From Bacteroidales bacterium (GTDB lineage: Bacteria > Bacteroidota > Bacteroidia > Bacteroidales > CAIWKO01), in assembly GCA_018004645.1 (NCBI GenBank), contig JAGNBV010000001.1, positions 4,665-68,664 on the forward strand: 64,000 nucleotides of DNA, written 5' to 3'. Position numbers and translations under genes: made by a program. The notes under the pieces were generated by a model. The model searched no databases. It had not been told where the DNA came from and worked only from the letters and a program-made list of their open reading frames with translations. Below are positions 12,036 to 37,107 of the stretch, in pieces (position 1 is the first letter of the stretch; the number at the start of each line of letters is the position of its first letter).

Positions 12036-12427
12036 TTTAATGCGTAATTCCATCTAACTTAATAAAACTAACTGTATTTCAATATATTCTAAGTTTCATA
12101 AAATATTCGTATTTATCAAAATATTTTATTTTTTCGTAGAAAAAAAGTGCGTTGGCTTGGCCCAGACGGCGGGCCAGCTCAGGCGTGAATCAGAAAATAT
12201 TTGAAAATCTTCAAAGGCCCCGCAGATTGCGGGGTTTCCCGACGCATGGCGTCGGGCCTACTTTGATTAGATTTTCAATATTTTCTGAGAGCGGGCAGAA
12301 GCATTGTCTGGGCTGTCTTTTTCTTTGGTTCATTTCTTTTGGACAAGCAAAAGAAATGAACACACAAATCAAAACACAATCATTCTAAAAGTTAGATGTT
12401 TTATTCTACTTTTTAAAGTCTTGAAAT
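12036..12427 (+). repeat. 392-bp structured repeat, copy A (inverted partner at 29435..29826)
   Basis: Aligns by eye at roughly 90% identity to the reverse complement of 29435..29826. Contains a ~21-bp long stem (12190-12210 / 12269-12288) enclosing two GC hairpins (12218-12234, 12238-12256), plus a perfect 13-bp hairpin (12328-12361). Confidence 0.9.
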
Positions 12428-12504
12428 ATGGGCTAAGACAATAAGTTGTTCAAAATCCTGCTTTTTGATGCGATATTCGTTCTATCTTTGCATATCATTC
12501 AACG

Positions 12505-13371
12505 ATGGAAAAAGAAACTCCCCAACAACAGGTATTGGTGCCTTATGACTTTTCCAAAGGGTCCGAAAACGCCCTGACAACTGCTATTGAACTGGCATCT
12601 CTTTTCAAGTGCGGGATTAGCCTGTTTCATGCCCTGAATAAAAAAAATATGCGGCTTTATCCGGGACGGGAAGAAGCTGAAAATATTACCAGAAACAAAC
12701 TTATCGCCATTGCCCGCGACGTGATAGAAGTGAGGCAGGTGCCGGTTAATGTTTATGTTTTTGTTGACGAGGTGCATCAGGTGGTTAATAAGATTTATGA
12801 ACGCATCAACGCCATCGCTGTGGTGGCAGGCCTTAACACGCCCAAAAATGCGGCTGATTATTTTACGCCCGGCAACCTGGTTACCGATTACCGGAACCTG
12901 CGCATACCATTGATTATTGTGCACGAGGTGTTACCGCGAAGAACGATGTTCGAGGGCATGGTGCTGCCTCTGGATTTCAACCGCGAATCTAAAGAAAAAG
13001 CTGCCTGGGCAGGACATATCAGCACCCTGAACAAAAGTTCTGTCAGCATTCTGACACGGCATTACAAGGATCCTTACTTTGCGGCATCTCTTCGCAGTAA
13101 TCTGGCCCTGGTTAAAAAGTTATATGCCAACCTTAATGTGGATTATCAGATAAAATTCGAGGCCGGGCTCAGGAGTGATATTGATAAATATGCCGTGGAT
13201 TATGCCTGGTATAATCAGGGCGCCATGGTAGTGATTATGGCAACCAAAGAAATAGCGGTGGATGATTTTATTTTTGGATTAAAAGAAAAAAGTATCATCG
13301 ACAATAAGTACAAACTGCCGGTAATGCTGATAAATCCCCGCGACGATCTTTATTTGCCTTGCGGTTGCTGA
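12505..13371 (+). CDS. universal stress protein family, tandem Usp domains
   Basis: 288 aa in two Usp-like halves (VLVPYDFSKGSENAL..., MVLPLDFNRESKEKA...). Confidence 0.75.
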   Translation: MEKETPQQQVLVPYDFSKGSENALTTAIELASLFKCGISLFHALNKKNMRLYPGREEAENITRNKLIAIARDVIEVRQVPVNVYVFVDEVHQVVNKIYERINAIAVVAGLNTPKNAADYFTPGNLVTDYRNLRIPLIIVHEVLPRRTMFEGMVLPLDFNRESKEKAAWAGHISTLNKSSVSILTRHYKDPYFAASLRSNLALVKKLYANLNVDYQIKFEAGLRSDIDKYAVDYAWYNQGAMVVIMATKEIAVDDFIFGLKEKSIIDNKYKLPVMLINPRDDLYLPCGC

Positions 13372-14024
13372 TTATCAGAAGTTTCCATTGGGGCCGCATC
13401 GAAGCGGAACAGGCGTTTTTGAAAAATCAATAAAATAAAAACCCCTACCGTAATGGTGGCATCGGCAATATTGAAAACCGGTTCGAAAAAAGTAAAGGGC
13501 TGACCGCCCCAGAAAGGAAACCACGAGGGCAATTCCACGGTAAACAACGGGAAGAAAAGCATATCGACCACTTTTCCATGCAAAAAAGTTGAATAACCGC
13601 CCCCGTCGGGGAAGAGCAGGGCTTTATCAAAAGGCGTACTTTCGCTGAAAATAAGGCCGTAAAAGGCGCTGTCGATGATATTGCCTATGGCGCCTGCAAA
13701 AATCAGCGATATGGTAACAATTAAAAAAGTGCCGGCTTTCTTTTTGGCCAGATAAACAATATACCAGCCGATAGCACAGATGGCAATAAGGCGGAAAATA
13801 CTCAGGGCAATTTTGCCATAGTTCCCGGCAAACTCCATCCCGAAAGCCATGCCATAGTTTTCGATAAATAATATTTGAAACCAATCGGCGCCAAACACAT
13901 GTACCGATTCACCTAGAAAAAAATGAGTTTTGATCCAAATTTTTATTATTTGGTCAATCAACAATATTACAAATACTACCGATGCGGAAATCAGCAGTTT
14001 TTTTTTGGTGTCGGTAAGCGTCAC
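13350..14024 (-). CDS. lspA: lipoprotein signal peptidase (signal peptidase II)
   Basis: Four TM helices. Motifs GAIGNIIDS, VVDMLFF, FNIADATI. Confidence 0.9.
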   Translation of the reverse strand: MTLTDTKKKLLISASVVFVILLIDQIIKIWIKTHFFLGESVHVFGADWFQILFIENYGMAFGMEFAGNYGKIALSIFRLIAICAIGWYIVYLAKKKAGTFLIVTISLIFAGAIGNIIDSAFYGLIFSESTPFDKALLFPDGGGYSTFLHGKVVDMLFFPLFTVELPSWFPFWGGQPFTFFEPVFNIADATITVGVFILLIFQKRLFRFDAAPMETSDNQQPQGK

Positions 14025-15115
14025 TTTTGTTTGCCTTGTTGAAGCTTGGCCTCCATGCTCAGGGTGGCATGAGGCACGATTTTAAGCCGTTCTTTGGATA
14101 TTAATTTACCGGTTACCCTGCAAATGCCATAAGACTTGTTTTCGATGCGTATAAGCGCGTTTTCGAGGTTTGAAATAAACTTAACCTGCCGCATGGCCAG
14201 CTGGCTGTTTTCTTCTTTAGAAAGCACCTGAGAGCCTTCTTCGAGAATTTTAAAAGTAGGCGAGGTGTCGTTGATATCCTGACCGGCGTTGTTGGAATAG
14301 GCTTCGGTAAGCAGTTCGAGATCGCGACGGGCTTCTTCCAGCTTTTTCAGGATGATTTCCTTGAATTCCTGAAGTTCTTCATCACTATATCTTGTTTTTT
14401 CAGCTTTTTCTTCTGCGATGACAGGAGTATTAATTACTTCTTCCTTAACGGGCTGGCTTACCTTTTTTGTTTCCGTTTTTTTAACGGCGGCTATTGGCTT
14501 GCTATCTGTGCTTTCCTTTACAACGGGCTTGATGGCCTTGGGAGGGGCAGCTACTTTTTTGGGCGCTGTTTTGGGAGCGGAAGTTTTTTTCACCGGAGCC
14601 GTTTTGAGTGTTTTCTTTACCTCAACTTTTTTGGGGGCTGGTGCAGGCTTTTTTGCTACGGTTTTTTTTGTTATAACCTTCTTTTTTGGCGCCACAGCAA
14701 CTTTTTTGGGCTCCACCTTCTTTTTTACTACGGCAGCAACTTTTTTGGCCGTTACTTTCTTTGGTGCAACTTTCTTTTTTGGTGCGATGACAACTTTTTT
14801 TACCTCAACTTTTTTTGCTACCACTTTCTTTTTTTGGATATTGACCACTTTTTTTGGTGCAGTTTTTTTTGCTGCCACAGTCTTTTTGGGAGCAGTTACC
14901 GCTTTTTTTACCGTGGTTTTTTTTGTTGTAATCGTTTTTTTAGGAGCGCTGACAACTTTTTTAGCAACAACTTTTTTGGCAACTACTTTCTTTTTTGGGG
15001 CCGTAGCAGCTTTTTTTACCGTGGTTTTTTTTGCTGCAGCGTTCTTTTTGGGAGCGCTTTTTATCTTTTTTTCAGCAACTTTTTTCACAACAGCTTTTTT
15101 AACCTTTTTTTGCAT
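14021..15115 (-). CDS. DksA/TraR-family protein with ~230-aa lysine/alanine/proline-rich histone-H1-like N-terminal repeat region
   Basis: C-terminal ~120 aa look DksA-like (coiled coil, then YGICRVTGKLISKERLKIVPHATLSMEAK). The N-terminus has many KKxxxAPKKKV(V)AKK repeats. Sits in conserved ileS-dksA-lspA order. Confidence 0.8.
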   Translation of the reverse strand: MQKKVKKAVVKKVAEKKIKSAPKKNAAAKKTTVKKAATAPKKKVVAKKVVAKKVVSAPKKTITTKKTTVKKAVTAPKKTVAAKKTAPKKVVNIQKKKVVAKKVEVKKVVIAPKKKVAPKKVTAKKVAAVVKKKVEPKKVAVAPKKKVITKKTVAKKPAPAPKKVEVKKTLKTAPVKKTSAPKTAPKKVAAPPKAIKPVVKESTDSKPIAAVKKTETKKVSQPVKEEVINTPVIAEEKAEKTRYSDEELQEFKEIILKKLEEARRDLELLTEAYSNNAGQDINDTSPTFKILEEGSQVLSKEENSQLAMRQVKFISNLENALIRIENKSYGICRVTGKLISKERLKIVPHATLSMEAKLQQGKQK

Positions 15116-15141
15116 AATATTTTTGTTTTATAATTTTAAAA

Positions 15142-18100
15142 TCAAGCTTTGCTTAACGAAACAAAAGTTATCGCGTTGTCTGTTAGTTCTATCTGATTTT
15201 TCACGCCCTCAATTGCATCAACAAAATCTATTGATACAGCTAAAATTTCGCTGCAAATATACAAATTATTATTTTCAACAGCAGCAACTAAATTGTGTTG
15301 TCTTTCCACCAACACCCGTATTTTGTCGGTAACTTCAAAATGAAGTTCTTTTCGCAGGGTTTGGATACGGTTTATAAATTCTCTGGCCAGGCCTTCTTCC
15401 ACAAGTTGCGGGGTAAGTGTGGTGTCGAGAGCTACCGTAATGTTTTCAGCCACAGACACTACCCAGCCGGGGATGTCTTCTGTTATGATTTCCACATCAT
15501 TAATGGAAATTTCAACTGGCGTATTATCAATGTCAAGCCCGAAGGTTTTGTTTTTTTCCAGTTCGTTGATTTGCTGCTGATTCATGGCACTGATGACGGC
15601 GGCAAGCGTCTTCATCTGTTTTCCGAATTTGGGTCCCAGCGCCTTAAAATCCGGCTTAATCTTTTTTACCAGAATATTGTTTTCGCCCTCGATGTATTCA
15701 ATTTCTTTTACATTAACCTCCGAGAGTATCAGGTTTTTAACGGCTTCTACCTGCACCTTTGTCTTGGTTTCCGTTATGGGTAGCATTATTTTTGCAAGCG
15801 GCTGACGCACACGCAAATTATGTTTTTTGCGTAGCGATAATACCATGGAAGATATTTTCTGAGCGAGCTCCATGCGTTCTTCAAGGTCTTTATCAACCAA
15901 TTTGTTGTCAGCTACCGGAAATTCAGCGAGATGTACGGACGGAAACTGAAGTTTTCCCGTTACGTTATTGAGGTCGAGGAAGAGTTTTTCGGCAAAAAAA
16001 GGAGCGATGGGCGATGTTAGTAATGCGATGGTTTTCAGGCATGTATAAAGGGTCTGGTAGGCCGAAATTTTGTCCTTGGAATAATCGCCTTTCCAGAAAC
16101 GACGCCGGCATAAGCGCACATACCAGTTGCTGAGGTACTCATCCACAAAATCCTGTATCAGCCTGCCGGCACGGGTTGGCTCGTAATCGGCATAGCACTC
16201 GTCAACCCGCATTATCAGTGTGTTGAGTTCCGAAATAATCCACCGGTCTATCTCCGGACGTTGTCCGACAGGGATTTCCTCTTCCTGATAAGCAAAGCCG
16301 TCAATGTTGGCATACAAAGCAAAAAACGCATAGGTGTTGTACAGTGTTCCGAAAAATTTCCGCTGCACCTCACCGATGCCTTCACTGTCGAATTTCAGGT
16401 TATCCCAGGGTTGCGAATTGGTTATCATGTACCAGCGCGTGGCATCGGGGCCATATTTGGAAATGGTCTCAAAAGGATCTACGCCATTGCCGAGCCGTTT
16501 CGACATTTTGTTGCCGTTTTTATCAAGCACCAAGCCGTTGGAAACCACGTTTTTAAAGGCAACGGAGTCGAATAACATCGCCGCAATGGCATGCAGGGTA
16601 AAAAACCATCCCCTGGTTTGGTCGACGCCTTCGGCAATAAAATCGGCCGGAAATTTAGATTTAAAAATATCCGCATTTTCAAAAGGATAATGCAGTTGTG
16701 CATAAGGCATGGAGCCCGAATCGAACCATACATCAATCAGGTCGGGTTCGCGGAACATCTTTTGGCCCGAGGGCGAAACCAGCACAATTTCATCAACATA
16801 AGGACGGTGAAGGTCAATGGTGTTATAGTTTTCTTTTGAATTATTTCCGTCGATAAAATCCTTGTATGGGTTGGTGCTCATAAAGCCTTTTTCAACGGCT
16901 TTTTCGATTTCCTTTTTCAGCTGATCCACCGATCCTATGCAGATTTTTTCCGAGCGGTCTTCCGTGGCCCAGATAGGCAAAGGAACACCCCAGTATCTTG
17001 TGCGTGAAAGGTTCCAGTCCACCAGGTTTTCGAGCCAGTTGCCAAACCTCCCGGTACCGGTGCTTTCGGGCTTCCAGTTGATGGTTTTATTTAACTCAAT
17101 CATACGTTCTTTGCATGCCGTGGTTTTGATAAACCAGGAATCGAGCGGATAGTACAAGATAGGCTTGTCGGTGCGCCAGCAGTGCGGATAGGAGTGTTCG
17201 TATTTTTCTGACTTGAAGGCCCTGTTTTCTTTTTTCAGTTTGATAATGATGTCGATATCAACATTGTTGCCGGGTTCGTTATTTTTAACAGGGTCGTATT
17301 CGTTTTTCACATAACGTCCTGCAAATTCGCCCATTTCCGCGACAAATTTTCCCTGCTTGTCAACCAGGGTGAGCGATCCCAGGCCTTTTTGCCGGGCAGT
17401 ACGGAAGTCGTCGGCGCCAAAACTGGGTGCAATGTGCACGATACCTGTTCCGTCTTCGGTTGTTACAAAATCACCGGCCACCACCTTGAAAGCATCGCCG
17501 TCGTCGGGCTGTACGTAAGGGAGAAGCTGTTCGTAACGGATTTCTTCCAGTTGTTTTCCTTTAAATTCTGCCACAACGCGATAGGGTATGTTTTTGTTTT
17601 CCGGCAGGTACTCTTCCATCGACAGTGCCGCATTTTTTTCCGGGAAATAGCTCTCTTTCAGGTTTTTGGCAAGGATAACGGTTATCGGCTGGTGCGTGTA
17701 TTGATTAAAAGATTGCACGGCGATATAATCGATGTTGGATCCAACGGCCAGAGCCGTATTGGATGGCAGGGTCCAAGGTGTGGTGGTCCAGGCAAGGATG
17801 AACAGCTCGCCGTGAAGTTTTTTACTGAGTTCTTTTATCAAAGGATGGTCGTTGTTAACCACTTTAAACTGGGCAACGACCGTGTTGTCTTTTACATCCT
17901 TATAACAGCCGGGCAGGTTGAGTTCGTGCGAGCTTAGCCCCGTGCCGGCTGCCGGCGAATAGGGTTGTATGGTGTAACCCTTGTATAGCAGACCTTTTTC
18001 GTATAATTTGCTGAGCAGATGCCAAACGGATTCAATGTATTTGTTGTCGAAAGTAATATAAGGATTTTCGAGGTCAACCCAATAGCCCATTTTAACTGTG

Positions 18101-18525
18101 AGGTCGTCCCACTGGTCCTTATATTTCATCACTTCTTTGCGGCATTGTTGGTTATATTCTTCTACCGTGATCGATTTGCCGATATCTTCTTTTGTAATTC
18201 CCAGGGTTTTTTCAACAGCTATTTCGATAGGCAAGCCGTGGGTGTCCCAGCCGGCTTTGCGTTCCACATAATAACCCTTAAGGGTTTTGTAACGGCAAAA
18301 AATATCTTTGATAGCACGAGCCATCACATGATGAATGCCGGGCTGGCCGTTGGCAGAGGGAGGCCCTTCGTAAAACACAAAGGGCGGGCACCCCTTGCGG
18401 GTATCAATACTTTTTTGAAAAATATCGTGCTGCTGCCAGTATTCATTTATTTCAGAAGCAATGTTTGTCAGGCTGAGTTGCTTGTATTCCGTGTATTTCT
18501 GTTTCATAAAGCTTAAATATTGCAT
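15142..18525 (-). CDS. ileS: isoleucine--tRNA ligase
   Basis: 1127 aa. Class I motifs PSANGQPGIHH (HIGH) and KMSKRLGN (KMSKS), plus a CP1 editing domain. Confidence 0.97.
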   Translation of the reverse strand: MQYLSFMKQKYTEYKQLSLTNIASEINEYWQQHDIFQKSIDTRKGCPPFVFYEGPPSANGQPGIHHVMARAIKDIFCRYKTLKGYYVERKAGWDTHGLPIEIAVEKTLGITKEDIGKSITVEEYNQQCRKEVMKYKDQWDDLTVKMGYWVDLENPYITFDNKYIESVWHLLSKLYEKGLLYKGYTIQPYSPAAGTGLSSHELNLPGCYKDVKDNTVVAQFKVVNNDHPLIKELSKKLHGELFILAWTTTPWTLPSNTALAVGSNIDYIAVQSFNQYTHQPITVILAKNLKESYFPEKNAALSMEEYLPENKNIPYRVVAEFKGKQLEEIRYEQLLPYVQPDDGDAFKVVAGDFVTTEDGTGIVHIAPSFGADDFRTARQKGLGSLTLVDKQGKFVAEMGEFAGRYVKNEYDPVKNNEPGNNVDIDIIIKLKKENRAFKSEKYEHSYPHCWRTDKPILYYPLDSWFIKTTACKERMIELNKTINWKPESTGTGRFGNWLENLVDWNLSRTRYWGVPLPIWATEDRSEKICIGSVDQLKKEIEKAVEKGFMSTNPYKDFIDGNNSKENYNTIDLHRPYVDEIVLVSPSGQKMFREPDLIDVWFDSGSMPYAQLHYPFENADIFKSKFPADFIAEGVDQTRGWFFTLHAIAAMLFDSVAFKNVVSNGLVLDKNGNKMSKRLGNGVDPFETISKYGPDATRWYMITNSQPWDNLKFDSEGIGEVQRKFFGTLYNTYAFFALYANIDGFAYQEEEIPVGQRPEIDRWIISELNTLIMRVDECYADYEPTRAGRLIQDFVDEYLSNWYVRLCRRRFWKGDYSKDKISAYQTLYTCLKTIALLTSPIAPFFAEKLFLDLNNVTGKLQFPSVHLAEFPVADNKLVDKDLEERMELAQKISSMVLSLRKKHNLRVRQPLAKIMLPITETKTKVQVEAVKNLILSEVNVKEIEYIEGENNILVKKIKPDFKALGPKFGKQMKTLAAVISAMNQQQINELEKNKTFGLDIDNTPVEISINDVEIITEDIPGWVVSVAENITVALDTTLTPQLVEEGLAREFINRIQTLRKELHFEVTDKIRVLVERQHNLVAAVENNNLYICSEILAVSIDFVDAIEGVKNQIELTDNAITFVSLSKA

Positions 18526-18754
18526 AAAAAAACGTGCAAAGGTAAAAAAAAATCATGACAAGCCGCCTGTGAAATGCAAACACAGTTTTATCAACAAAGG
18601 CGCGACTTTTTCACAAGCAGTTTTTTACAAAACAATAACCCAGGGTTAATTTAAGGTCAAGCCAATATTAAGATTGCGTTAATTTTTTGATATACAAATG
18701 AATATAAGGCAAAAAACCTCTTTTTTTGCATCCGCAAGTCTCAAAATTGTGAAA

Positions 18755-19747
18755 ATGAAAAAATTAATTTTGATTATTATTGGATTCTTTTTGTTGACAG
18801 CTCCAACTGGCGCGCTGGCGCAAGACGACACTACAGGGTTTGTGAAACGCTGGCTTCCGGGGACCATTACCGGCGTTATCCGGACCAAATACGAGCAAAA
18901 TACCAGCAACGGAAAGGGTCGTTTTGATGTGCGCAATGCCCGTTTTGGCATGAAAGGTAATGTGGGTAAGTATTTTGGTTATAAATTCGAGATTGATTTT
19001 TGCGATGAAGGCAAGATTAAAATGCTTGATGTCTATGCCGATTTTATTCCGGTGAAAAACCTCACTTTTTCGCTGGGGCAGATGAAAGCACCATTCAGCA
19101 CCGAATACCTGCTGAATCCTTCCAAATATGAGTTTGCCAACCGGCCGTTTATTGATAAGCGCATTTGTATGGATTTGCGGGACATCGGTTTTAAAATCAC
19201 TTACGATTATGAAGGGAAAATACCCTTTTCTGTCTCAGGTTTTATCATGAACGGAACTGGAGTAAACAATCCCGAATGGACCACCCGCTTTGCCGCCGGA
19301 GGCCGTACATTGATCACTCCCTTTAAAGGCTTTACGATACAGGCCCAATATCTGGCCGGCACTGTCGGCGACAAGAGAACGGAAATGCAGGGTTATGGCA
19401 TAAGGTATGAATACAAGGGATTAATAATCAATACGGAATATGCGCAAAAAACCATAGTGGATACGGCCAGCGCTTATACTCAAAACAGTATGTTCGCTTA
19501 TGTGCTTTATAATTTTCAATTCACCGGGGGAATGATAAAAACATTAACTCCCGCCCTGAGGTATGATTTTTTTTCGGGGAATATGAAATCAGGCATTTAT
19601 GAGCCACACCGGCTCACTGCCGGACTCACACTGGGCTTTCACAAGTTGTCTTTTGCCAATATCCGCTTCAACTATGAAAAATATTTTTATCGGGTATCCG
19701 AAGGACGAGAGGACAAATTTACCGTTGAATTTATGGTGAAATTTTAA
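18755..19747 (+). CDS. outer-membrane porin, phosphate-selective porin O/P-like
   Basis: Start moved to MKKLILII, which has a signal peptide. Beta-barrel-like alternating pattern, a RFDVRNARFGMKGN motif, and terminal F. Confidence 0.7.
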   Translation: MKKLILIIIGFFLLTAPTGALAQDDTTGFVKRWLPGTITGVIRTKYEQNTSNGKGRFDVRNARFGMKGNVGKYFGYKFEIDFCDEGKIKMLDVYADFIPVKNLTFSLGQMKAPFSTEYLLNPSKYEFANRPFIDKRICMDLRDIGFKITYDYEGKIPFSVSGFIMNGTGVNNPEWTTRFAAGGRTLITPFKGFTIQAQYLAGTVGDKRTEMQGYGIRYEYKGLIINTEYAQKTIVDTASAYTQNSMFAYVLYNFQFTGGMIKTLTPALRYDFFSGNMKSGIYEPHRLTAGLTLGFHKLSFANIRFNYEKYFYRVSEGREDKFTVEFMVKF

Positions 19748-19942
19748 ACCCCCAAATGGGAATTTCGCGTAAAACATTGTTTATAAAAGACATGATTTCT
19801 TTATTTGGCGCGAAACACGGGTTATTTTACTAACAGACAAAACGTTATCAACATTTGTTAATAAGTGCTGTTTATAAGGTGTTTATAATTTATTTTGTAA
19901 AAAACTTGATTTCTGGTTATAAATTTCGTATATTTGTTTATT

Positions 19943-20245
19943 CAGAGGAGCGATAAAACACCGGCTTGAAAAAGCAAGTTCTTTTAAAAGTTGTATCATT
20001 ATATGAGAGGGACCAACCATGCGTTTTCCCGGCAACAATCCAGATGGATTGATTGCACCATAAAGGAAACACCTTAGCTGGTGAGTATGAAGTTCTAATT
20101 GTAAAATCATATAATCGATAAAAGCAACCGGGTCCGCAAGGAGCAGGTGAAAATAACCGTAATCTGGCGTTTACCGGCGGTTACGACAGCCGATAAATGA
20201 ATGGGGAACAAAATTCAAAACTTTGTTCCCCATTGTGTTTTTATA
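19943..20245 (+). ncRNA. candidate orphan structured RNA, class unknown
   Basis: TATATTTG -7 box at 19929-19936, with TTG about 20 nt upstream. No ORF longer than 20 aa. Ends at terminator GGGGAACAAA/TTTGTTCCCC (20203-20231) plus a T-run. No downstream plus-strand gene. Confidence 0.3.
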
Positions 20246-20287
20246 CCGTCGGGTAAATTCATGAATTTACCCGGTAGTTTTTGCATA

Positions 20288-21016: not shown

Positions 21017-21034
21017 TTGTTGTAACGAAAGGAT

Positions 21035-22561
21035 TTACCCAAGTTTAGAAATACCCGCTTCAATACGCTTCAAGGTTTCATCCTTTCCAATAATTTCAAT
21101 AATGGTACACAGATCAGCCCCCATGGCTGCTCCTACAATAACCACCCGGAGCGCATTCATAATTTGTCCGGTATGATACTGTTTTTCATTGATGTAGTCC
21201 ATTATTTTCTGCTTAATTTCGTCGGCAGTCCATATAGCACATTGGTTGATTACCTGCGAAATTTCCTTGATTTTTTCAGCAGAATCTGCTTTCCACCGGT
21301 CTTTAACGGATTTGGCATCATAGCTTACCGGCGCTTCGAAAAAATAGGATGATTGGGCCCATAATTCGTGGGTAAAGGTAATACGTTCTTTTATCAGCGA
21401 AATAATTCTCGTCACCGAAGCCCAATCGGCGTTAATATTTCGGCCAGCCAGTTCCCGGCCAAACAGTTTCGCGAGTTCTTCATCATTTTTGTTTTGTATG
21501 TACTGGTGGTTGAACCATTTGGCTTTTTCAGGACTAAATTTTGAGCCGGATTTTCCAACACGTTCCAGCGAAAAAGCATCGATAAGCTGGTCCATCGAAA
21601 AAATTTCCTGTTCGGTTCCGGGGTTCCAGCCAAGCAGAGCCAGCATATTAATGAAAGCGTCAGGGATATATCCGGACTCGCGGTAGCCACTCGAGATTTC
21701 TCCGCTTTTGGGATCGGTCCATTGCAAAGGAAATACCGGGAATCCCAGCCGGTCGCCATCGCGCTTGCTGAGTTTGCCATTGCCGTCGGGTTTCAAAAGC
21801 AGCGGCAAATGGGCAAAATACGGCATGTCGTTTTCCCAGCCGAGATAACGGTATAGTAATACGTGCAGGGGAGCCGATGGCAGCCACTCTTCGCCGCGTA
21901 TCACATGAGATATTTCCATCAGGTGGTCGTCTACCACATTGGCCAGGTGATAGGTGGGCAAGCCGTCGGACTTGAAAATAACCTTGTCGTCAAGCAAAGA
22001 GGAATCAAAAGTCACAGAGCCGCGAATCAGGTCGTTGATTGTAACTTTTTCGTTTTCGGGAATTTTTATCCGTATCACATAAGGAGCACCGGACTCAAGC
22101 AATTCTATGGTCTTTGATTCGGGAATAGTTAGTGAGTTGTTTAATTGCAAACGGTTTTTTTGGTCGTACTGAAAGGTTTTTTTTTCGGCTTCGTGGCTTT
22201 TTCTTAAGGTGTCCAGGGCTTCAGCCGAATCAAAAGCATAATAAGCATAGCCGTTATCAACTAATTGCTGAGCATATTGCCGGTAAATGGCTTTGCGTTC
22301 GGATTGGCGGTAGGGCATGTGCGGGCCGCCAGCCTCAACGCCTTCATTATAATTTATTCCGCACCATTTCAGCGATTCGATGATATACTCTTCCGCCCCG
22401 GGAACAAAACGTGTTTGGTCAGTATCTTCGATACGGAGTATCATGTCGCCGTTGTGTTTTTTTGCAAAAAGGTAGTTGTATAAAGCTGTGCGAACGCCTC
22501 CTATGTGAAGAGGCCCGGTGGGGCTGGGCGCAAAGCGAACCCTGATTTTTTCTGTCATCAT
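21035..22561 (-). CDS. gltX: glutamate--tRNA ligase
   Basis: Start moved to [22 protein letters not shown] (HIGH). Has KLSKRDG (KMSKS). TATTTTTG box just upstream. Confidence 0.95.
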
Positions 22562-22768
22562 AAAAATTTTTGCAAAAATATCGTATTTTAGGTTAACAAG
22601 CCCCATGTGAACTGTCATTAAGTTCTCCACAGGTTGTAAAAACGATAAAACATCCGGTATGGCCGTAAACTTGAAAATTGATACCGTTTACTGATTTAGT
22701 GGGTATTAACCCAGTGCCGGGGCGTAGTTTTACGTTACATATAAAAACAAACAAGAAAGGAGCAAGCG

Positions 22769-22891
22769 ATGTCAAACACTAAAAATAATTTAACTATGAA
22801 AACAGCAAAACCATACGTACTGTGGATCATCTTTGCTGCATGGATGCTTGCGATTTTTGCAGTAATGATGCTGATTGAGTACAAAATGTAG
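22769..22891 (+). CDS. 40-aa hydrophobic peptide, hypothetical
   Basis: AAGGAG 7 nt before the ATG. Single TM (YVLWIIFAAWMLAIFAVMMLI). Followed by hairpin GCCACTC..GGGTGGC plus T8 at ~22929-22955. Not in the ORF track because it is under 60 aa. Confidence 0.35.
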   Translation: MSNTKNNLTMKTAKPYVLWIIFAAWMLAIFAVMMLIEYKM

Positions 22892-22980
22892 CCGCAAACC
22901 CAGAGCAAGCCAAATTTTTAAACCAAGCCACTCTTAACGGGGTGGCTTTTTTTTAATTTTGTCTTAAAAAAATAACGGAA

Positions 22981-23934
22981 ATGTCGGATCGGGATTTTCA
23001 AAAAGCACTAGAGCAAAACGATATTGACCTGCTGGCCCAAATTCCAAAGAGCGACCTCCATAACCACGCGGCACTTGGAAGCCGCATAGAATTTCTGGAG
23101 AAATGGGCAAAACAAAAAATTATCAGGCCACCGCAGGAAATGAAAAAATTTTCTGATTTTGAGGATTATTTGGAAAAAGCATTTAATAAATTTGTTAAGG
23201 CCCCGGAGTTTTTTGAGTACGCAAAAACGGCCACCCTTGAACAGGCCCGCCTCGATGGCGTAAAAGTGCTTCAAATAAGCCTCGACTCGCGTTTTTTTAG
23301 TGGTTCAGACAAAGATTGCCGGGAGAAAATTGATATTGTTCAAGGCGCTTTCAGACGGATATCTCCCGGGATATATTTTGTACCGCAGCTTGGTCTTCAA
23401 CGAAATCAGGACCAGAAAAAACTTTTTTATGATGCCGAGAGACTTCTTGACACAGGCTATTTCCGGTCAATAGATTTATATGGCGATGAATTGTATGGCG
23501 ATGTAGAAAGTTATATTCCACTCTACCGGAAAGCCAAAAAACAAGGAATGGTTCTCACAGCTCATGCTGGTGAGTATGGAACGGCTGTCTCGGTGAAAAA
23601 AGCCGTTGAGTTACTGGAACTCGATCAGGTGCAGCACGGTATTGCCGCATCGGAATCGAAAGAAGTGATGCGCTGGCTTGCCGACAATAAAATCATCCTC
23701 AATGTGTGCCCTACCAGCAATGTAATGTTGTGCCGGGTGCCCTCTATGGCAAAACATCCTGTTCGCATACTTTATGATCACGGGGTAAGGGTTACCATTA
23801 ATACTGATGATTTGATGGTGTTCAATCAATCCGTAAGTCAGGAATATCTCAACCTTTATAGGGCCGGAGTATTGGGTATCGGGGCGCTGGATGAAATCCG
23901 GCAGAACGGCCTACATGCTTTTAAAGGACAATAA
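22981..23934 (+). CDS. add: adenosine deaminase family protein
   Basis: Metal-ligand motifs DLHNHA, HAGE, and TINTDD. Confidence 0.8.
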   Translation: MSDRDFQKALEQNDIDLLAQIPKSDLHNHAALGSRIEFLEKWAKQKIIRPPQEMKKFSDFEDYLEKAFNKFVKAPEFFEYAKTATLEQARLDGVKVLQISLDSRFFSGSDKDCREKIDIVQGAFRRISPGIYFVPQLGLQRNQDQKKLFYDAERLLDTGYFRSIDLYGDELYGDVESYIPLYRKAKKQGMVLTAHAGEYGTAVSVKKAVELLELDQVQHGIAASESKEVMRWLADNKIILNVCPTSNVMLCRVPSMAKHPVRILYDHGVRVTINTDDLMVFNQSVSQEYLNLYRAGVLGIGALDEIRQNGLHAFKGQ

Positions 23935-24007
23935 TGCACAGTTTTTTTTGTCAACAAGGCCGAAATTTAATTAAAGGGTATATCTTTGCTTAACAAAAGT
24001 AAAAAAA

Positions 24008-24703
24008 ATGAAATTTGGTGTCGTAATATTCCCGGGATCTAATTGTGATCATGACTTGTTGTATGTATTAAAAAAAATCCTTAAGCAGGAGGTTGTTGCC
24101 CTGTGGCATAAAGATAAAGACCTGCAAAAATGTGATTTTATTTTTCTTCCGGGAGGATTTTCTTATGGTGATTACCTGCGTTCAGGAGCCATTGCGCGTT
24201 TTTCGCCCATTATGGAAAAAATAATTGATTATGCCAATAATGGAGGTTATCTGATGGGGATTTGTAATGGTTTCCAGATTTTGTGTGAAGCCCAATTATT
24301 GCCGGGAGCCTTGCTGAGCAATAACAACAAGCAGTTTATCTGTAAAAATGTTTTTATCAAACCGGTTTCGCAAAAAGCTGCACCGGTCAAATACCTTGAT
24401 CCGGAAAAAGCGCTGAAAATACCCGTGGCACATGCCGAGGGCCGGTACTATGCCGATAAAAAAACCATAAAGCAGCTTTACGAACACGACCAGATACTTT
24501 TTAAATATTGCGATGCTGCCGGACATATTACCGAGGATTCAAATCCTAATGGCACAATTGATAATATTGCGGGTATCTGCAACCGTACCAGGAATGTTTT
24601 TGGGATGATGCCTCACCCCGAAAGGGCTTGCGACAAAGAGCTTTCCAATACCGACGGCAAACTGATTATGGATTCGCTGTTGAAAACCCTGACAAAAAAA
24701 TAA
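24008..24703 (+). CDS. purQ: phosphoribosylformylglycinamidine synthase, glutaminase subunit
   Basis: 231 aa. GATase-1 nucleophile GICNGFQ and MMPHPER. Confidence 0.95.
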   Translation: MKFGVVIFPGSNCDHDLLYVLKKILKQEVVALWHKDKDLQKCDFIFLPGGFSYGDYLRSGAIARFSPIMEKIIDYANNGGYLMGICNGFQILCEAQLLPGALLSNNNKQFICKNVFIKPVSQKAAPVKYLDPEKALKIPVAHAEGRYYADKKTIKQLYEHDQILFKYCDAAGHITEDSNPNGTIDNIAGICNRTRNVFGMMPHPERACDKELSNTDGKLIMDSLLKTLTKK

Positions 24704-24709
24704 GTTGTT

Positions 24710-25798
24710 TTGAAAAAGATTTTGTTTATCGTTGCTCACCGGCCGGGCCGGTCGCCAGGGCAAAGGTTTCGTTTTGAACAATATCTTGATTACCTCGCGA
24801 ACAAGGATTATTCTTACGAATTTTCTTTTCTGCTTACCGAAAATGACGATAAGGTTTTTTACAGCAAGGGAAAATACTTTAGCAAATTTCTGATTTTTAT
24901 AAAAAGCATTTTATTGAGATTCAGGGATTTGAGGCGGGTGCGGAACTACGATATCGTATTTATTTACCGGGAAGCCGTGATGTTTGGCAGTACTTTTTTT
25001 GAAAAAAAATTTAAAAAAAAAGGCGCCCTTATTATCCTTGATTTTGATGATGCCATCTGGCTTATGGATGTGTCGGAAGGCAACAAAAAGCTGAGTTGGC
25101 TTAAAAGGCCTTCAAAAACAGCTGATATTTTGAAACTTTCCGATATGGCTTTTGTTGGAAATTCTTATTTAGCCACCTATGCCCAACAGTATAATCCCAA
25201 TGTGAAAATTGTCCCTACCACCCTTGATACCCGAAAAATGAAAACCAAACACCAGATGGTCTCCGAGAAGATTTGTATTGGCTGGACAGGGTCGCACACC
25301 ACATTAAAACATTTTGAATTAGCTATCCCGTTTTTGAAAAAAATAGCGGAAAAGTATCCTGTAAAAATAAAAATCATTTCTGACATACCACTGAACTCCA
25401 ATGAGTTACGTTTTGATTTTTGTCGCTGGAATAAGGATTCCGAAACGGAAGACCTTTCAGAAATTGATATTGGGATAATGCCCTTGCCAGATAACGACTG
25501 GGCCCGAGGAAAATGCGGGTTTAAGGGTTTGCAATATATGGCGGTCGGGATTCCGGCGGTTATGTCGCCGGTTGGTGTCAATACGGAGATAATTAAAGAC
25601 GGGGAAAATGGTTTTCTGGCGGCAAATGAAGATGAATGGATCGAAAAATTATCCCTGCTTATTGAATCGCCCGAACTGAGAAAAAAAATAGGTGCCACCG
25701 GTCGTAAAACAGTGGAAGAAAAATATTCTTTCAATGCCTGGAAAGACACCTACGTCGGGTATTTTGAAGAATTGCTTACGAAGAAAAATCATTCATAG
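24710..25798 (+). CDS. GT4-family glycosyltransferase
   Basis: TTG start. C-terminal GT-B motif CGFKGLQYMAVGIPAV...ENGFL. Confidence 0.8.
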   Translation: MKKILFIVAHRPGRSPGQRFRFEQYLDYLANKDYSYEFSFLLTENDDKVFYSKGKYFSKFLIFIKSILLRFRDLRRVRNYDIVFIYREAVMFGSTFFEKKFKKKGALIILDFDDAIWLMDVSEGNKKLSWLKRPSKTADILKLSDMAFVGNSYLATYAQQYNPNVKIVPTTLDTRKMKTKHQMVSEKICIGWTGSHTTLKHFELAIPFLKKIAEKYPVKIKIISDIPLNSNELRFDFCRWNKDSETEDLSEIDIGIMPLPDNDWARGKCGFKGLQYMAVGIPAVMSPVGVNTEIIKDGENGFLAANEDEWIEKLSLLIESPELRKKIGATGRKTVEEKYSFNAWKDTYVGYFEELLTKKNHS

Positions 25799-28275
25799 TA
25801 ATACACACGCTTTACCCGGCTGGAAACGGACGTGAGAATTTCGTATGGGATAGTGTCGAGGCGGTCGGCAATTTCTTTAATGGTGGCAGCATCATCGAAA
25901 ACATAAACAATATCGCCTTCTTCGGCTTCAAGGCCTGTTATGTCGAGCATACACATGTCCATGCACACACTGCCGATAATGGGCGCTTTTTTGCCATTCA
26001 CGATCATAAACCCGTTGCCGTTGCCCAGCTTGCGGTTGAGGCCATCGGCATAACCTATCGGAATAGTGGCAATGCGTGCGTCTCCGCCGGCAATGTATTT
26101 TCGTCCGTAACCTACCGTATCGCGGGCCGAAATGGTTTTAATCTGCGAAATGATAGAACTCAGGCTGCTGACATTCTGCAGATACTGTTGTTCTTCTTCC
26201 GAAAATGAAATGCCGTACAGCCCTATTCCCAACCTAACCATATCGAATTGTGCCTCAGGAAAGCGGGAAATTCCGGCAGAGTTCAACACGTGCATCATAA
26301 ACGGGGTTTTGATTTCTTCTTTCATACGTGCACAAACCGTTTCGAGTGTCTTTATTTGTTGCCGCGAAAACTCATCCTCGTTGTTGTTTTCGCTGGCCGC
26401 CAGGTGCGTAAACACCGACCGGACAATAATACTATCGTTTTGTTTAAGCACAGCCAACAACTTGTCAATTTCATCAGGTAAAAAACCCAGGCGGTGCATA
26501 CCGGTGTCTATTTTTATGTGCACCGGCATTTTGTAAGGCTCTTTTGATTCGTAGGCGGTGATGGATTCGATGAGCAGCGTGAGCGTGCGAAAATTGTATA
26601 TTTCCGGTTCAAGACTGAACTTTTTCATCAGGTCAAAACTTTCTTCTTCGGGGTTCATGACCATGATAGGGGTGGTAATTTTAGCCTTGCGGAGTTCTAT
26701 GCCTTCATCAGCGTAAGCCACAGCCAGGTAATCAATGTTGTGGTATTGCAATACGTTGGCAATTTCGTAGCCGCCGCTTCCGTATGAAAGGGCTTTTACC
26801 ATCGCCATGACTTTGGTGCCTTTTTTAAGTTTGTTCTGGTAAAAATTCAGGTTATGAATAAGAGCGTTTAGGTTAATTTCCAGAAGCGTTTCATGCGATT
26901 TTTGCTGCAACATACGGCTTATCTGCTCGAAAGCATAGATACGTGCGCCCTTGATAAGTATTGTTTCGTTATGGAATGCCGACCCGGGAACTTTTGCCAG
27001 AAAGGCATCAGTGTCAATAAAAAATGACTTTTCCATCGGGAAAAGCTTTTCGTTTTTCGAAATGGAAGGCCCGATACCGATAAAACGCGTTACCCCTTTT
27101 GATACCAACAGGTTAGCTATTTCGCCATAGAGTTCGTGATCCGTAAGGGAACTTTGCAGGATATCCGACAAAATCACGGTTTTTTTGCTGTGCTGTTTTT
27201 GCTGACACATAAAATCCAGGGCGATGTTCAGCGAATTGAGGTCCGAACTATAGCTGTCGTTAATAACAGAACAGTTGTTTATGCCGGCCTTCAGTTCGAG
27301 ACGCATTGCCACGGGCGTCAGCAGGGCTAACCTGGCGGCGATGGTTTCGTGAGGATAGTCCAGGTAAAGCATTAACGCCCAGCAATGTATGGCGTTTTCT
27401 ATGGAGGCGTCATCGGTAAAGGGAATTTGTACCGCGATATTTTCTGATTTATAAACCGCAGAGATTATGCAATGGTTTTGATTTTTTTCAATGCTTTTTA
27501 TGGTCAAATCGGCTTTGTGTTTGGAGCCCCAGGAAAAAAAACATTTTTGAGGTTGAATGCCGGATTTAATTATACGTTCTTGGATATCATAGTTATCCGA
27601 ACAATAAATGAGGGTTTCGATGCGTCGGAAGAGGTTCAGTTTTTCACCGATTTTTTGCCTGACATTCAGAAAGTTTTTATCGTGGGCAGTGCCAATATTG
27701 GTAAAGATACCGATAGTGGGACTAATGATCGGTTGCAGGATTTTCATTTCTTCAGGTTCCGAAATTCCCGCTTCAAAAATGGCCAGTTCGTGTTCGGGTT
27801 GCATTTGCCATACCGATAATGGCACCCCGACCTGTGAGTTATAGCTTTTGGGGCTGCGAACAATATTTTTATCGGGCGACAGCAATTGAAACAACCATTC
27901 TTTAACAATGGTTTTGCCGTTACTGCCTGTGATGCCGATAACAGGGATGTTGAACCGAAGGCGGTTATGAGTGGCAAGAGTTTGAAGCGCAACCAGCGTG
28001 TCGCTGACGAATACGAACCTGGCGTTTGCGTAGTTTTCCTGGTTTTCGGGTAATGATGACACCATGAAATACCGGATTCCTTTTTCATAGAGTTCCGGAA
28101 TGTAGTTGTGCCCGTTATTTTTTTTGGTGACCAGGCAAAAAAACAATGCATTATCGGCAGAAGTTACCTTTCGGCTGTCAATGAGCAGGTGCCTGATAGG
28201 ATAGTCGTCGGGGAGGTCGTTTGAAAGCGTACCATTTACAATAGACGCAATTTCTGATATAGTATAGGAGGGCAT
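25789..28275 (-). CDS. murF: bifunctional UDP-MurNAc-pentapeptide synthase (MurF) / alanine racemase (Alr)
   Basis: N-terminal half has Mur ligase GITGSNGKT. C-terminal half has the PLP site AMVKALSYGSG and the YGISF-type racemase core. Confidence 0.9.
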   Translation of the reverse strand: MPSYTISEIASIVNGTLSNDLPDDYPIRHLLIDSRKVTSADNALFFCLVTKKNNGHNYIPELYEKGIRYFMVSSLPENQENYANARFVFVSDTLVALQTLATHNRLRFNIPVIGITGSNGKTIVKEWLFQLLSPDKNIVRSPKSYNSQVGVPLSVWQMQPEHELAIFEAGISEPEEMKILQPIISPTIGIFTNIGTAHDKNFLNVRQKIGEKLNLFRRIETLIYCSDNYDIQERIIKSGIQPQKCFFSWGSKHKADLTIKSIEKNQNHCIISAVYKSENIAVQIPFTDDASIENAIHCWALMLYLDYPHETIAARLALLTPVAMRLELKAGINNCSVINDSYSSDLNSLNIALDFMCQQKQHSKKTVILSDILQSSLTDHELYGEIANLLVSKGVTRFIGIGPSISKNEKLFPMEKSFFIDTDAFLAKVPGSAFHNETILIKGARIYAFEQISRMLQQKSHETLLEINLNALIHNLNFYQNKLKKGTKVMAMVKALSYGSGGYEIANVLQYHNIDYLAVAYADEGIELRKAKITTPIMVMNPEEESFDLMKKFSLEPEIYNFRTLTLLIESITAYESKEPYKMPVHIKIDTGMHRLGFLPDEIDKLLAVLKQNDSIIVRSVFTHLAASENNNEDEFSRQQIKTLETVCARMKEEIKTPFMMHVLNSAGISRFPEAQFDMVRLGIGLYGISFSEEEQQYLQNVSSLSSIISQIKTISARDTVGYGRKYIAGGDARIATIPIGYADGLNRKLGNGNGFMIVNGKKAPIIGSVCMDMCMLDITGLEAEEGDIVYVFDDAATIKEIADRLDTIPYEILTSVSSRVKRVYYYE

Positions 28276-28288
28276 GAAAAGAACAGTG

Positions 28289-29386
28289 TTAGTTATCTTT
28301 TTCCGAATCTGTATCGGATTGTTTGTGTGAACTTATTTTAAGCGGATTGGCTTTCAGTGAGTCGTAATTATTGCGATTTGTAAAAATATCACAGGCAAGG
28401 TACATCGCATTGCGGAACGATTCGGGGCTAGCAATGTTTTTTCCGGCAATATCGTAAGCTACTCCATGAGCAGGAGAAGTTCTGACAACAGGCAGTCCGG
28501 CGGTATAGTTAACACCTTCGTTAAAGGCAATGATTTTAAATGCTATCATGCCCTGATCGTGATACATGGCCAGTACACCATCAAATTGCCGGTATTTGAG
28601 CGAGCCAAAAAATCCGTCGGGAGGATACGGGCCAAAACAAAGAATATTTTCGGATTGGGCTTTTTTCATGGCCGGGATAATCACGCTGGTTTCTTCGTTG
28701 CCGATAACGCCACTGTCTCCCGAGTGGGGGTTCAGGCCCAACAGGGCGATTTTTGGTTTGTCAATACCAAAGTCGCGTATCAGCGAGTTGTTCATCACTA
28801 TCAGTTTGCGCAGGATGAGTTCTTCGGTAAGCGTATCCGAAATGTTTTTTATAGGAACATGGCCTGTTACAAAACCTATCCGCAGGTCGGGCGCCACCAT
28901 CATCATCAGATAATTCGAAGCATTGAAGCGTTCGGCAAGATATTCCGTATGTCCTTTAAAATGGAAATCGCCGGACTGAATATTTTTCTTGTTGATGGGA
29001 GCTGTAAGCAACACGTCAATATTATTGTTTTTCAAATCGCTGGTAGCCATATCGAGGGCCATAAGAGAAAGTTTTCCGGCGATTTCGGTGGATTCGCCGA
29101 TATCGATTTTTACTTCCTGTTCGGTAACATTCACGATGTTCTGGCGTTTTGAACTCGCCAGTTCGGCTTTTTTTACCAGGTTGAAGTTAATGTCGTTGTA
29201 GTTTAGCGCTTTGCGGTAATAAGAAGCAATTTTTGACGAGCCATATACTACGGGGGTGCATATTTCGAGGATGCGTGGTTCCATCAATGTCTTGATAATG
29301 ATTTCGTAACTGATGCCATTAAAATCGCCATGCGTAATACCCACCACAACTTTGCGGTCTTTTTCGGCTTCTTTGGTGTTTCCCAT
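28289..29386 (-). CDS. pdxA: 4-hydroxythreonine-4-phosphate dehydrogenase
   Basis: Start moved to MGNTKEAEK.... Motifs ITHGDFNGIS, GHTEYLA, LNPHSG, VRTSPAHG. Confidence 0.9.
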   Translation of the reverse strand: MGNTKEAEKDRKVVVGITHGDFNGISYEIIIKTLMEPRILEICTPVVYGSSKIASYYRKALNYNDINFNLVKKAELASSKRQNIVNVTEQEVKIDIGESTEIAGKLSLMALDMATSDLKNNNIDVLLTAPINKKNIQSGDFHFKGHTEYLAERFNASNYLMMMVAPDLRIGFVTGHVPIKNISDTLTEELILRKLIVMNNSLIRDFGIDKPKIALLGLNPHSGDSGVIGNEETSVIIPAMKKAQSENILCFGPYPPDGFFGSLKYRQFDGVLAMYHDQGMIAFKIIAFNEGVNYTAGLPVVRTSPAHGVAYDIAGKNIASPESFRNAMYLACDIFTNRNNYDSLKANPLKISSHKQSDTDSEKDN

Positions 29387-29434
29387 ATCAAAATTATTTT
29401 TCACAAAGATACTTATAAAAAACATTTATCCCGC

Positions 29435-29826
29435 ATTTCAAGACTTTGAAAAAGTAGAATAAATCATCTAACTTTTAAAATGATTTAGCCATGATTTGTG
29501 CGTTCATTTCTTTTGCTTGTCCAAAAGAAATGAACCAAAGAAAATGACAGCCCAGACAATGCTTCTGCCCGCTCTCAGAAAATATTGAAAATCTAATCAA
29601 AGTAGGCCCGACGCCATGCGTCGGGAAACCCCGCAATCTGCGGGGCCTTTGAAGATTTTCAAATATTTTCTGATTCACGCCAACGCTGGCCCGCCGTCTG
29701 GGCAGGCCAACGCACTTTTTTTCTACGAAAAAATAAAATGTTTTGATAAATGCCGATATCTTATGAAACTTACAATTTATTGAAATACAGTTAGTTTAAT
29801 TAAGTTGGAATCAATTACGCATTAAA
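29435..29826 (-). repeat. 392-bp structured repeat, copy B (inverted partner of 12036..12427)
   Basis: Reverse complement aligns along its full length to copy A. The same hairpins are retained, including the 13-bp hairpin at 29502-29535. Confidence 0.9.
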
Positions 29827-37035: not shown

Positions 37036-37107
37036 TACCAATAAATATATCCGGCACCGGAAAAAGTCGTCTCGAAAAAAATAAGTACTAACCAAAAACG
37101 TCGCAAA

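Follow-up and report, generated by a model that had tools for sequence, protein, structure and literature searches.

Two separate MITE insertions probably account for an inverted repeat pair around a 17-kb housekeeping block in an uncultured Bacteroidales genome

We analyzed a 64-kb stretch of DNA from a Bacteroidales metagenome-assembled genome (MAG), hereafter the window, in which two copies of a repeat, at 12036–12427 on the plus strand and at 29435–29826 on the minus strand, lie in inverted orientation on either side of a block of housekeeping genes. The copies were alignable end to end (MAFFT) and showed 91.8% identity over 415 nt (blastn), with a longest perfectly identical run of 136 nt, confirming a pair that the original prediction had judged by eye to be about 90% identical. 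The complementarity of the two arms was 95% over 258 ungapped nucleotides (12160–12417/29446–29703) and 87% over 140 nt (12023–12162/29700–29839). No other long inverted repeats were found in the 64-kb window, and the pair is therefore not a product of chance. The enclosed block of ~17 kb, from usp to pdxA (12438–29424, without strand assignment), lies outside the mobile element described below, and its gene order and orientation are those of relatives lacking the repeats. Its gene content agreed with the list given earlier: Pfam matches, taken from the called genes of contigs identical to the window, comprised Usp (faint), Peptidase_A8 (lspA), tRNA-synt_1 (ileS), Porin_O_P, ThiF, tRNA-synt_1c (gltX), A_deaminase, GATase_5 (purQ), Glyco_trans_1_4, Mur_ligase with Ala_racemase, and PdxA, and no Pfam match was on record for the gene called dksA-like. 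ARAGORN and the Rfam gathering search of the window reported only a tRNA-Met, at 46149 and 46152, respectively.

The repeat itself had been described as noncoding, which held: an ORF of 67 to 78 aa in the main group of copies is not maintained in the diverged copies of another species (locus L032), where indels disrupt it, and we rejected a small protein encoded within the element on these grounds. The coordinates given above cover the part common to both copies, and the full inserts are longer, 11807–12432 for the copy upstream of usp (element A) and 29430–29848 for the copy upstream of pdxA (element B). The repeat had earlier been assigned to no insertion sequence (IS), MITE, or RNA family. 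For RNA, this was upheld by an Rfam search of the whole window at the gathering threshold and by an E-value search of 11900–12550, which returned subthreshold noise only; the MITE behavior, however, became evident from the empty sites found in relatives.

Element A is a complete inserted MITE of 626 nt (11807–12432, plus strand). It consists of a left terminus, a module that we call R2 (11807–12035, plus strand), which is absent from B, and the 392-bp module common with B, which continues for another 5 nt to the right terminus (12036–12432, plus strand). The termini of the element read CCCAGATTGAGCAATAGG ... AAGTCTTGAAATATGGG, and the right end, when reverse-complemented (CCCATATT), agrees with the left end CCCAGATT at seven of the first eight positions. 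The element is flanked by target-site duplications CTAAT (11802–11806, plus strand) and CTAAG (12433–12437, plus strand), matching at four of five positions, and the empty site in the sister MAG L021 has CTGAT at this place. With A and one copy of the duplication removed, the spacer is colinear with that empty site. The element sits between the terminator of an M28-peptidase gene and the promoter of usp, whose –7 box TATCTTTG (12483–12490, plus strand), with TTTG 19 nt upstream, is outside the element, intact, and conserved in L021. We take this box, and the one in front of pdxA, to be –7 elements according to the Bacteroidetes promoter consensus.

Element B is likewise a complete inserted MITE, 419 nt long (29430–29848, minus strand) and made of a 22-nt left terminus and the shared module, with the ends CCCAATTTAAG and CCCGCATTTCAAG. 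Its target-site duplications, ATAAA upstream (29849–29853, minus strand) and ATAAA downstream (29425–29429, minus strand), match at five of five positions and correspond to a single copy in relatives. The empty site is clean in L054, reading ...CCATAAA/TGTTTTTT..., and the filled site in the window, with the element in parentheses, reads ...CCATAAA(CCCAATTTAAGC...GAAATGCGGG)ATAAATGTTTTTT. The spacer between mqnD and pdxA is accordingly 523 nt in the window vs. ~100 nt at the empty sites of L054, L058, and L062. The pdxA –7 box TATCTTTG (29404–29411, minus strand) lies 13 nt downstream of the inserted element, so that the –33 region now consists of element DNA and this part of the promoter was rebuilt by the insertion. 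Inside the element, a search for a Bacteroidetes-type promoter (TAnnTTTG with an upstream TTTG) found none on either strand, and the perfect matches were the flanking promoters of the genes themselves. An outward-promoter role of the element is thus unsupported for A and conjectural for B.

By kind, these elements are MITEs. They are shorter than 1 kb and carry no conserved ORF; both A and B have terminal inverted repeats, short and imperfect, of the form 5'-CCCAGATT.../...AAATnnGGG-3'; the AT-rich 5-bp targets of both are duplicated, as checked against the empty sites of B in L054 and of A in L021; and the copies are dispersed, with both sites empty, and cleanly so, in related Bacteroidales MAGs and metagenome contigs. 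Across the family, the end motifs are CCCAGATT (also as CCCAGATTnnGCAATAG) on the left and ...AATTTGGG on the right, and a scan of the window for such termini plus a duplication matched A and B only. It is documented by the empty sites that the two insertions postdate the split from the sister lineages. We consider it probable (roughly 0.8) that the two arms arose independently, by insertion of members of a single mosaic, nonautonomous MITE family in uncultured anaerobic-digester Bacteroidales; the figure covers the explanation as a whole, comprising insertion, a transposase acting from elsewhere, an incidental inverted arrangement, and modular cargo. A and B would have landed separately in A/T-rich 5-bp targets, each duplicated in the process, and the termini would carry interchangeable modules between them, a module of ~390 nt being common to the two. 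Their inverted arrangement would be incidental, as each element is oriented like its downstream gene and usp and pdxA face each other.

The original prediction had proposed searching for more copies and for target-site duplications, and both were found. The shared module occurs between at least seven other flank pairs in digester metagenomes, all beside housekeeping genes and never with a transposase adjacent. At least three further lineages have diverged or relic copies, namely L025 and L062, with truncated relics, and L032, with two copies in tandem. The copy in L029 has the target-site duplication ATAAT/ATAAT, and the copies in L024 and L027 have no recognizable duplication or degenerate ends. 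The modules also appear in other combinations: R2 is free-standing in L032 as a 233-nt MITE (L032:901–1133) with termini as in A, it abuts the shared module in inverted orientation in L026, and a module of ~66 nt, R3, has the family termini in L029. Some copies elsewhere contain inserted small G/C palindromes (CCTGCCTGCC..GGCAGGCAGG). An exact pattern of the core had no matches in genome contigs, and two patterns had none in viral contigs; element A had no blastn match in the collections of plasmids and phages searched; and a search of 329 kb of window and locus sequence with a covariance model of the core added no copies to those found with blastn. Neither Rfam nor these collections yielded a description of the family.

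We infer that the termini are recognized in trans by the product of a DDE transposase gene at another location. The IS1380 family is the most likely candidate, favored by the likeness of the ends and of the 5-bp duplication to those of ISEcp1. Target duplications are generally 4 to 5 bp in the IS1380 family, and the 5 bp found here fall within this range. ISEcp1 has IRL CCTAGATTCTACGT, IRR ACGTGGAATTTAGG, and 5-bp direct repeats (PMC7864471, PMC6061673; pEK204 record). The left end CCCAGATTGAGCAA agrees with its IRL at 8 of 14 positions, including 7 of the first 8, and the right ends agree with its IRR at 9 to 11 of 14 positions for A, L029, and the R2 element of L032 (11 of 14 for the last, ATGCGGAATTTGGG) and at 8 of 14 for B. 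In both systems, the ends start with CC, the left CCCAGATT resembles IRL CCTAGATT, the right ...GGAATTTGGG resembles IRR ...GGAATTTAGG, and the 5-bp target duplications are A/T-rich. The resemblance, of the IS1380 type, is suggestive and short, at ~14 nt per end. Members of the IS1380 family are also known to misrecognize their ends and to capture adjacent DNA (PMC9330008), which would fit the mosaic modules, the variable interior, and the alternative ends of the present elements. Unlike ISEcp1, the elements have no internal transposase gene, and no partner IS was found in the sequence searched: tblastn at E ≤ 10 detected no IS1380-like transposase in 720 kb of window and locus sequence. The hosts differ as well, a Bacteroidales MAG lineage here vs. 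Enterobacteria, and a tblastn search of plasmids with the ISEcp1 transposase gave no Bacteroidales among the matches listed, most of which were from Enterobacteria. The elements add to the uncultured Bacteroidales a MITE family with putatively IS1380-like ends.

The part of the shared module that stands out is a structured core. In A, helices P1–P4 span 12154–12317 (plus strand) and comprise an outer stem, a 23-bp A/T-rich stem, and two G/C hairpins; the covariance-model match is 194 bits and the fold z-score –8.5. They are followed by hairpin P5 (12328–12361, plus strand), with a perfect stem of 14 bp and the conserved loop GGACAAGC. The corresponding helices P1–P4 of B (29546–29709, minus strand) match the model at 196.5 bits, and P5 of B (29502–29535, minus strand) was projected from A through the ungapped arm 12160–12417/29446–29703.

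The original prediction held that the arms may recombine, so that the 17-kb block would exist in both orientations. Inverted copies with ~92% identity over ~400 nt and a 136-nt identical core, far longer than RecA recombination minimally requires, make the pair a potential substrate for homologous inversion, after which the enclosed genes would all keep their own promoters; a rare inversion across the core is physically possible. The contigs nevertheless make it improbable that the inverted form occurs at appreciable frequency in the population. Six independent assemblies span junction A (M28–element–usp) and eight span junction B (mqnD–element–pdxA), all in the window orientation, as are a 33.5-kb contig across both junctions and two contigs, of 31.4 and 22 kb, that run from inside A over the whole block and through junction B. 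The joins expected from inversion, M28–element–pdxA or mqnD–element–usp, were absent from public contigs, which are consensus assemblies and could miss a rare inversion. Related genomes do lack the repeats, an outcome named in advance as speaking against inversion, and their colinear gene order and orientation indicate that the orientation in the window is ancestral. Nor do the Pfam matches of the block and its flanks include a recombinase or invertase gene in or beside it, and with a single orientation in all spanning contigs, we rejected a switch operated by a site-specific invertase. In three assemblies (L012/L028, L036, and L046/L047), the flank of one copy is connected through the repeat to that of another, which may reflect recombination between copies, but the switch points fall in the identical core, and chimeras of the de Bruijn graph through that core would explain them equally well. 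Many assemblies of this digester Bacteroidales, which is abundant, break off at the ~400-nt repeat or misjoin flanks there, and knowing the element boundaries helps in judging MAG contiguity and chimeras. A documented history of two MITE insertions takes the place of a speculative invertible block. The many hairpins of the element, its strand-asymmetric folding, and the small G/C palindromes of some copies would suit a derivative of a single-strand-DNA transposon recognized through its hairpins, either palindrome-associated IS200/IS605 or REP/RAYT. Such elements are not known to make target-site duplications or to have terminal inverted repeats, and their hairpins are subterminal, whereas the present elements have centrally placed hairpins, terminal inverted repeats, and a 5-bp duplication checked against the empty site; furthermore, no transposon-associated RNA family of Rfam matched copy A (11900–12550, by E-value) or the whole window (by gathering score), and we regard this origin as very unlikely. 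Still less credible is an ancient, nonmobile regulatory region duplicated in front of usp and pdxA. Both copies do lie just upstream of a gene start and are co-oriented with it, but the two genes keep promoters of their own outside the repeat, relatives have these promoters without the repeat, and further copies adjoin unrelated genes, some at their 3' ends; the empty sites refute the idea.

The account in terms of MITE insertion is compatible with the shared module being primarily a multicopy structured noncoding RNA gene or cis-regulatory RNA, with the transposon-like ends as its vehicle, a reading that we find possible but do not favor. Most MITEs are best conserved at their ends, whereas in this family identity among copies is 97% in the core and 78 to 82% in the arms, which calls for an additional explanation, either gene conversion or selection acting on the cargo. 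In the consensus structure, which comprises 76 pairs, 95.8% of cells are paired vs. 41 to 46% in slid controls, and 8 pairs have changed on both sides, a number reached by 1 of 500 shuffles. In L032, the stem sequence of P5 has been rewritten on both arms and the loop GGACAAGC retained. The core folds 6.5 to 16 kcal/mol better on the strand in the orientation of A in 10 of 10 copies, this strand has conserved G–U pairs, and the gene upstream of the module is co-oriented in six of seven cases. The two-sided changes come essentially from one lineage split, between the main group and L032, and thus represent few independent events, and palindromic DNA is able to keep its pairing without any function in RNA. 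Moreover, the element has neither the promoter type searched for above nor a clear terminator, only five of eight downstream genes are co-oriented, the L024 copy is antisense to both neighbors, no Rfam family matched, and truncated relics such as those of L025 and L062 are expected of decaying mobile DNA. Judging from sequence and predicted folding, we suggest only tentatively that the core of ~210 nt (P1–P5; 12154–12361 and 29502–29709) could be a functional, strand-specific structured RNA under purifying selection, mobile between MITE chassis with left arms of the R2 and R3 types. It might be kept for the benefit of the host or of the element, for example by insulating or processing intergenic transcripts or by serving a trans-acting transposition factor; the core would probably act as RNA within intergenic transcripts, where it could serve as an insulator, stabilizer, or processing site. 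With its core better conserved than its arms, the family offers a small example in which possible selection on the cargo of a MITE can be tested.

Among the small repeats of intergenic regions, Correia/NEMIS in Neisseria and ERIC in enterobacteria also have inverted ends; they are cotranscribed with their neighbors, and their long RNA hairpins affect processing, stability, or promoter activity. With about 100 to 160 nt and simple single hairpins, these are far shorter than the elements described here and have no known sequence similarity to them, and the target duplication of Correia is TA. Closer in host are the MITEs of Porphyromonas gingivalis (BrickBuilt, MITEPgRS/MITE464, and MITE239), which are also strictly intergenic elements of Bacteroidales with cargo trapped between IS-like terminal repeats. 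They are found in 10 to 20 copies per genome, and effects on promoters and, in concert with IS elements, rearrangements of the genome have been ascribed to them (PMC4596501). Their terminal repeats are, in contrast, of the IS5 type (GAGACC.../ACGTCAG...), and their cargo consists of tandem direct repeats rather than the conserved multihelix fold found here (PMC4596501).

End-to-end alignment of the two intervals bore out the original prediction that they form a genuine inverted repeat pair, the only long inverted repeats found by a repeat search of the whole window. One arm spans 258 nt (12160-12417/29446-29703; 95% complementary) and the other 140 nt (12023-12162/29700-29839; 87%). The two copies, A and B, are 91.8% identical across 415 nt (blastn), and their longest run free of mismatches is 136 nt. 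Both are intergenic, A lying between an M28 peptidase gene and usp and B between mqnD (1,4-dihydroxy-6-naphthoate synthase) and pdxA, and each has the orientation of its downstream gene. The genes previously listed for the enclosed 17-kb block match Pfam hits on identical contigs. By exact-protein look-ups, the locus is present in many anaerobic-digester and sludge metagenomes and in NCBI MAGs labelled just "Bacteroidales bacterium."

Empty sites in relatives show both copies to be insertions. The relatives were found via usp (contigs L021-L023) or via mqnD homologues (L054, L058, and L062, with 92, 84, and 80% identity), and at blastn sensitivity the repeat had no match in their collected loci, save a diverged, 3'-truncated relic elsewhere in L062-L064. 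The mqnD-pdxA spacer measures ~100 nt in all three relatives recovered with mqnD. In L054, ...CCATAAA is joined directly to TGTTTTTTATAAGTATC..., while the window reads ...CCATAAA, then CCCAATTTAAGCAATAG...CTTGAAATGCGGG, then ATAAATGTTTTTTATAAGTATC...; the clean alignment of the two defines B as a 419-nt insertion (29430-29848, minus strand) with ATAAA duplicated on its flanks. At the other site, the spacer is 88 nt in the sister MAG L021 (usp 95% identical) versus ~700 nt in the window. With 11807-12437 removed, what is left of the window spacer is colinear with that of L021 over the junction, which makes A a 626-nt insertion (11807-12432) with CTAAT/CTAAG at its edges. A scan of all 64 kb of the window for CCCnn[AT]TT...AA[AT]nnGGG termini 60-900 nt apart, with 5-bp flanks differing by at most one mismatch, returned A and B as its only two matches.

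The earlier proposal that the block may invert was not supported: every spanning contig has the window orientation. The M28-repeat-usp junction is spanned by 6 independent assemblies and mqnD-repeat-pdxA by 8, and no contig carries an inversion junction. Contig Ga0116248_10002043 (33.5 kb) contains both junctions, and JAKPUL010000026.1 (31.4 kb) and k141_416483 (22 kb) each start inside copy A and cover the whole block and junction B. Many further contigs terminate within the repeat, as is typical of an assembly-breaking repeat. The repeat-free relatives keep the same gene order and orientation around both junctions, from which the present block orientation is ancestral. Three assemblies connect the flank of one copy to that of another, third copy: the mqnD flank leads to a 213-aa gene with methyltransferases (L012/L028), flanks are connected otherwise than in loci L027/L030 and L029 (L036), or the M28 flank leads to the right flank of L027 (L046/L047). 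All three switch points fall within the identical core of the repeat, and the joins are either true recombinants or de Bruijn-graph chimeras. At L046/L047:5740-5790 (one assembly), an A-type element is followed by ATAA plus ATCAGCGTTATTTGGG and then the right flank of the L027 copy; the short piece looks like a near-empty mini-element.

The repeat pair is thus two MITE insertions, not an inversion system, and is explained by an undescribed family with IS1380-like ends, its novelty being judged against Rfam and plasmid and phage collections. The core pattern recovered 13 loci in one metagenome scan. Excluding A and B, the module that these two share (~390 nt, with a structured core of ~210 nt) occurs between at least seven distinct flank pairs, none with an adjacent transposase; its neighbors are ordinary genes, encoding a Mur ligase, a PhoH/PIN protein, an alpha/beta hydrolase, a CNNM/CorC transporter, another M28 peptidase, and an HD protein. 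Diverged copies in other lineages include a 5'-truncated one (L025; 82% identical) and two in tandem (L032; ~80%). The element's left part is built of modules. One additional segment in A, R2 (11807-12035), is inverted in L026 and in L032 stands alone as a 233-nt element whose ends, CCCAGATTACGCAATAGG...AATGCGGAATTTGGG, are the same. Another segment, R3 (~66 nt, with CCCGGAT...ATCCGGG ends), occurs in L024 and L029, with ATAAT/ATAAT on either side of the L029 copy. Comparison of the modules leaves two common denominators, the CCC.../...GGG termini and an A/T-rich duplication of 5 bp. R3 is itself a mini-element, CCCGGATTTGTCA...GTTGTATCCGGG, with the same CCC/GGG termini, free-standing at L029:~1400-1500 (minus strand) and joined to the shared module at L024:~5090-5165, an arrangement that suggests exchange of cargo between chassis. 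Other loci (L032:3989-4092, L026:~930-950, and L031:~11400-11440) have a short G/C-rich palindrome of about 20-33 nt, CCTGCCTGCC...GGCAGGCAGG, inserted within or beside copies of the shared module or R2. The window lacks this palindrome, which behaves as a REP-like mini-repeat in its own right.

Over ~14 nt per end, the termini resemble those of ISEcp1, a member of the IS1380 family, a likeness short of proof. ISEcp1 has the ends CCTAGATTCTACGT (IRL) and ACGTGGAATTTAGG (IRR) and direct repeats of 5 bp, for example TAATA and TAAGA (PMC6061673, PMC7864471), features also seen directly in the pEK204 sequence. Agreement with ISEcp1 is 7/8 first positions for the start of A (CCCAGATTGAGCAA), 11/14 for the end of the L032 R2 element (ATGCGGAATTTGGG), and 10/14 for the end of the L029 copy (TCTTGAAATTTGGG). 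The best-described Bacteroidales MITEs, those of P. gingivalis, differ in having IS5-type ends. IS1380 members mis-recognize ends and thereby mobilize neighboring DNA (PMC9330008), which would explain the swappable modules. An IS1380-like transposase was found neither in the window nor in the collected loci.

The interest of the pair lies chiefly in its unusually conserved structured cargo. Both element strands fold far more stably than shuffles (z = -8.5 and -9.4). In the RNAalifold consensus of ten copies, P1 is the outer stem and P2 a 23-bp A/T-rich stem around two G/C hairpins (P3 and P4), and a further hairpin, P5, of 13-14 bp and with loop GGACAAGC, stands apart. Pairing in this structure holds for 95.8% of cells, versus 41-46% with partners slid, and 8 pairs show two-sided changes, matched by 1/500 shuffles. 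The count leaves out P5 of L032, whose stem differs on both arms with the same loop, because MAFFT misaligned it. Among seven main-group copies, identity is 97% in the core versus 78-82% in the arms. The A-orientation strand of the core folds better by 6.5-16 kcal/mol in 10/10 copies and has several conserved G.U pairs.

That the core would be a functional RNA is nevertheless a doubtful reading, held secondary to MITE insertion for four reasons. The compensatory changes come nearly all from one lineage split; palindromic DNA and gene conversion between copies could imitate selection; no internal Bacteroidetes-type promoter was found in the element; and copy orientation relative to neighbors is biased but not strict (upstream gene co-oriented in 6/7, downstream in 5/8).

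The usp promoter, with TATCTTTG (12483-12490, TTTG 19 nt upstream) as its presumed -7 box, is untouched by A: it lies 45 nt past the element, and its sequence is conserved in L021. B inserted 13 nt upstream of the presumed pdxA -7 box (29404-29411), and its right end now forms the -33 region; a change in pdxA expression is plausible. The L026/L028 copy upstream of the 213-aa gene has a similar spacing, about 12 nt, to a -7-like box.

Elsewhere, a strain-variable island occupies ~35555-45000 (boundary near 35555-35581) and may be a prophage or transposon. In the window and L018/L019, it holds genes for an S24/HTH repressor-like protein (36134-36793, minus strand) and an AAA_22 ATPase (40449-41321), with an ORF of 670 aa (38413-40425) between them. 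A collagen/PTL_trimer protein of 1647-1668 aa takes this place in other strains (L011-L016). Within or beside the island lies a tRNA-Met (CAT; 46149-46225), the only feature that Rfam and ARAGORN found in the window. The adenosine deaminase gene (22981-23934) is whole in the window and L014/L015 and broken into 128-147-aa and 163-aa ORFs in same-species contigs L011, L013, and L017, a frameshift polymorphism or pseudogene. The 364-aa "dksA-like" ORF, with no Pfam hit on record, has at least five 54-nt tandem repeats (14686-15063) in its Lys/Ala/Val-rich N-terminal half, where relatives' contigs tend to stop.
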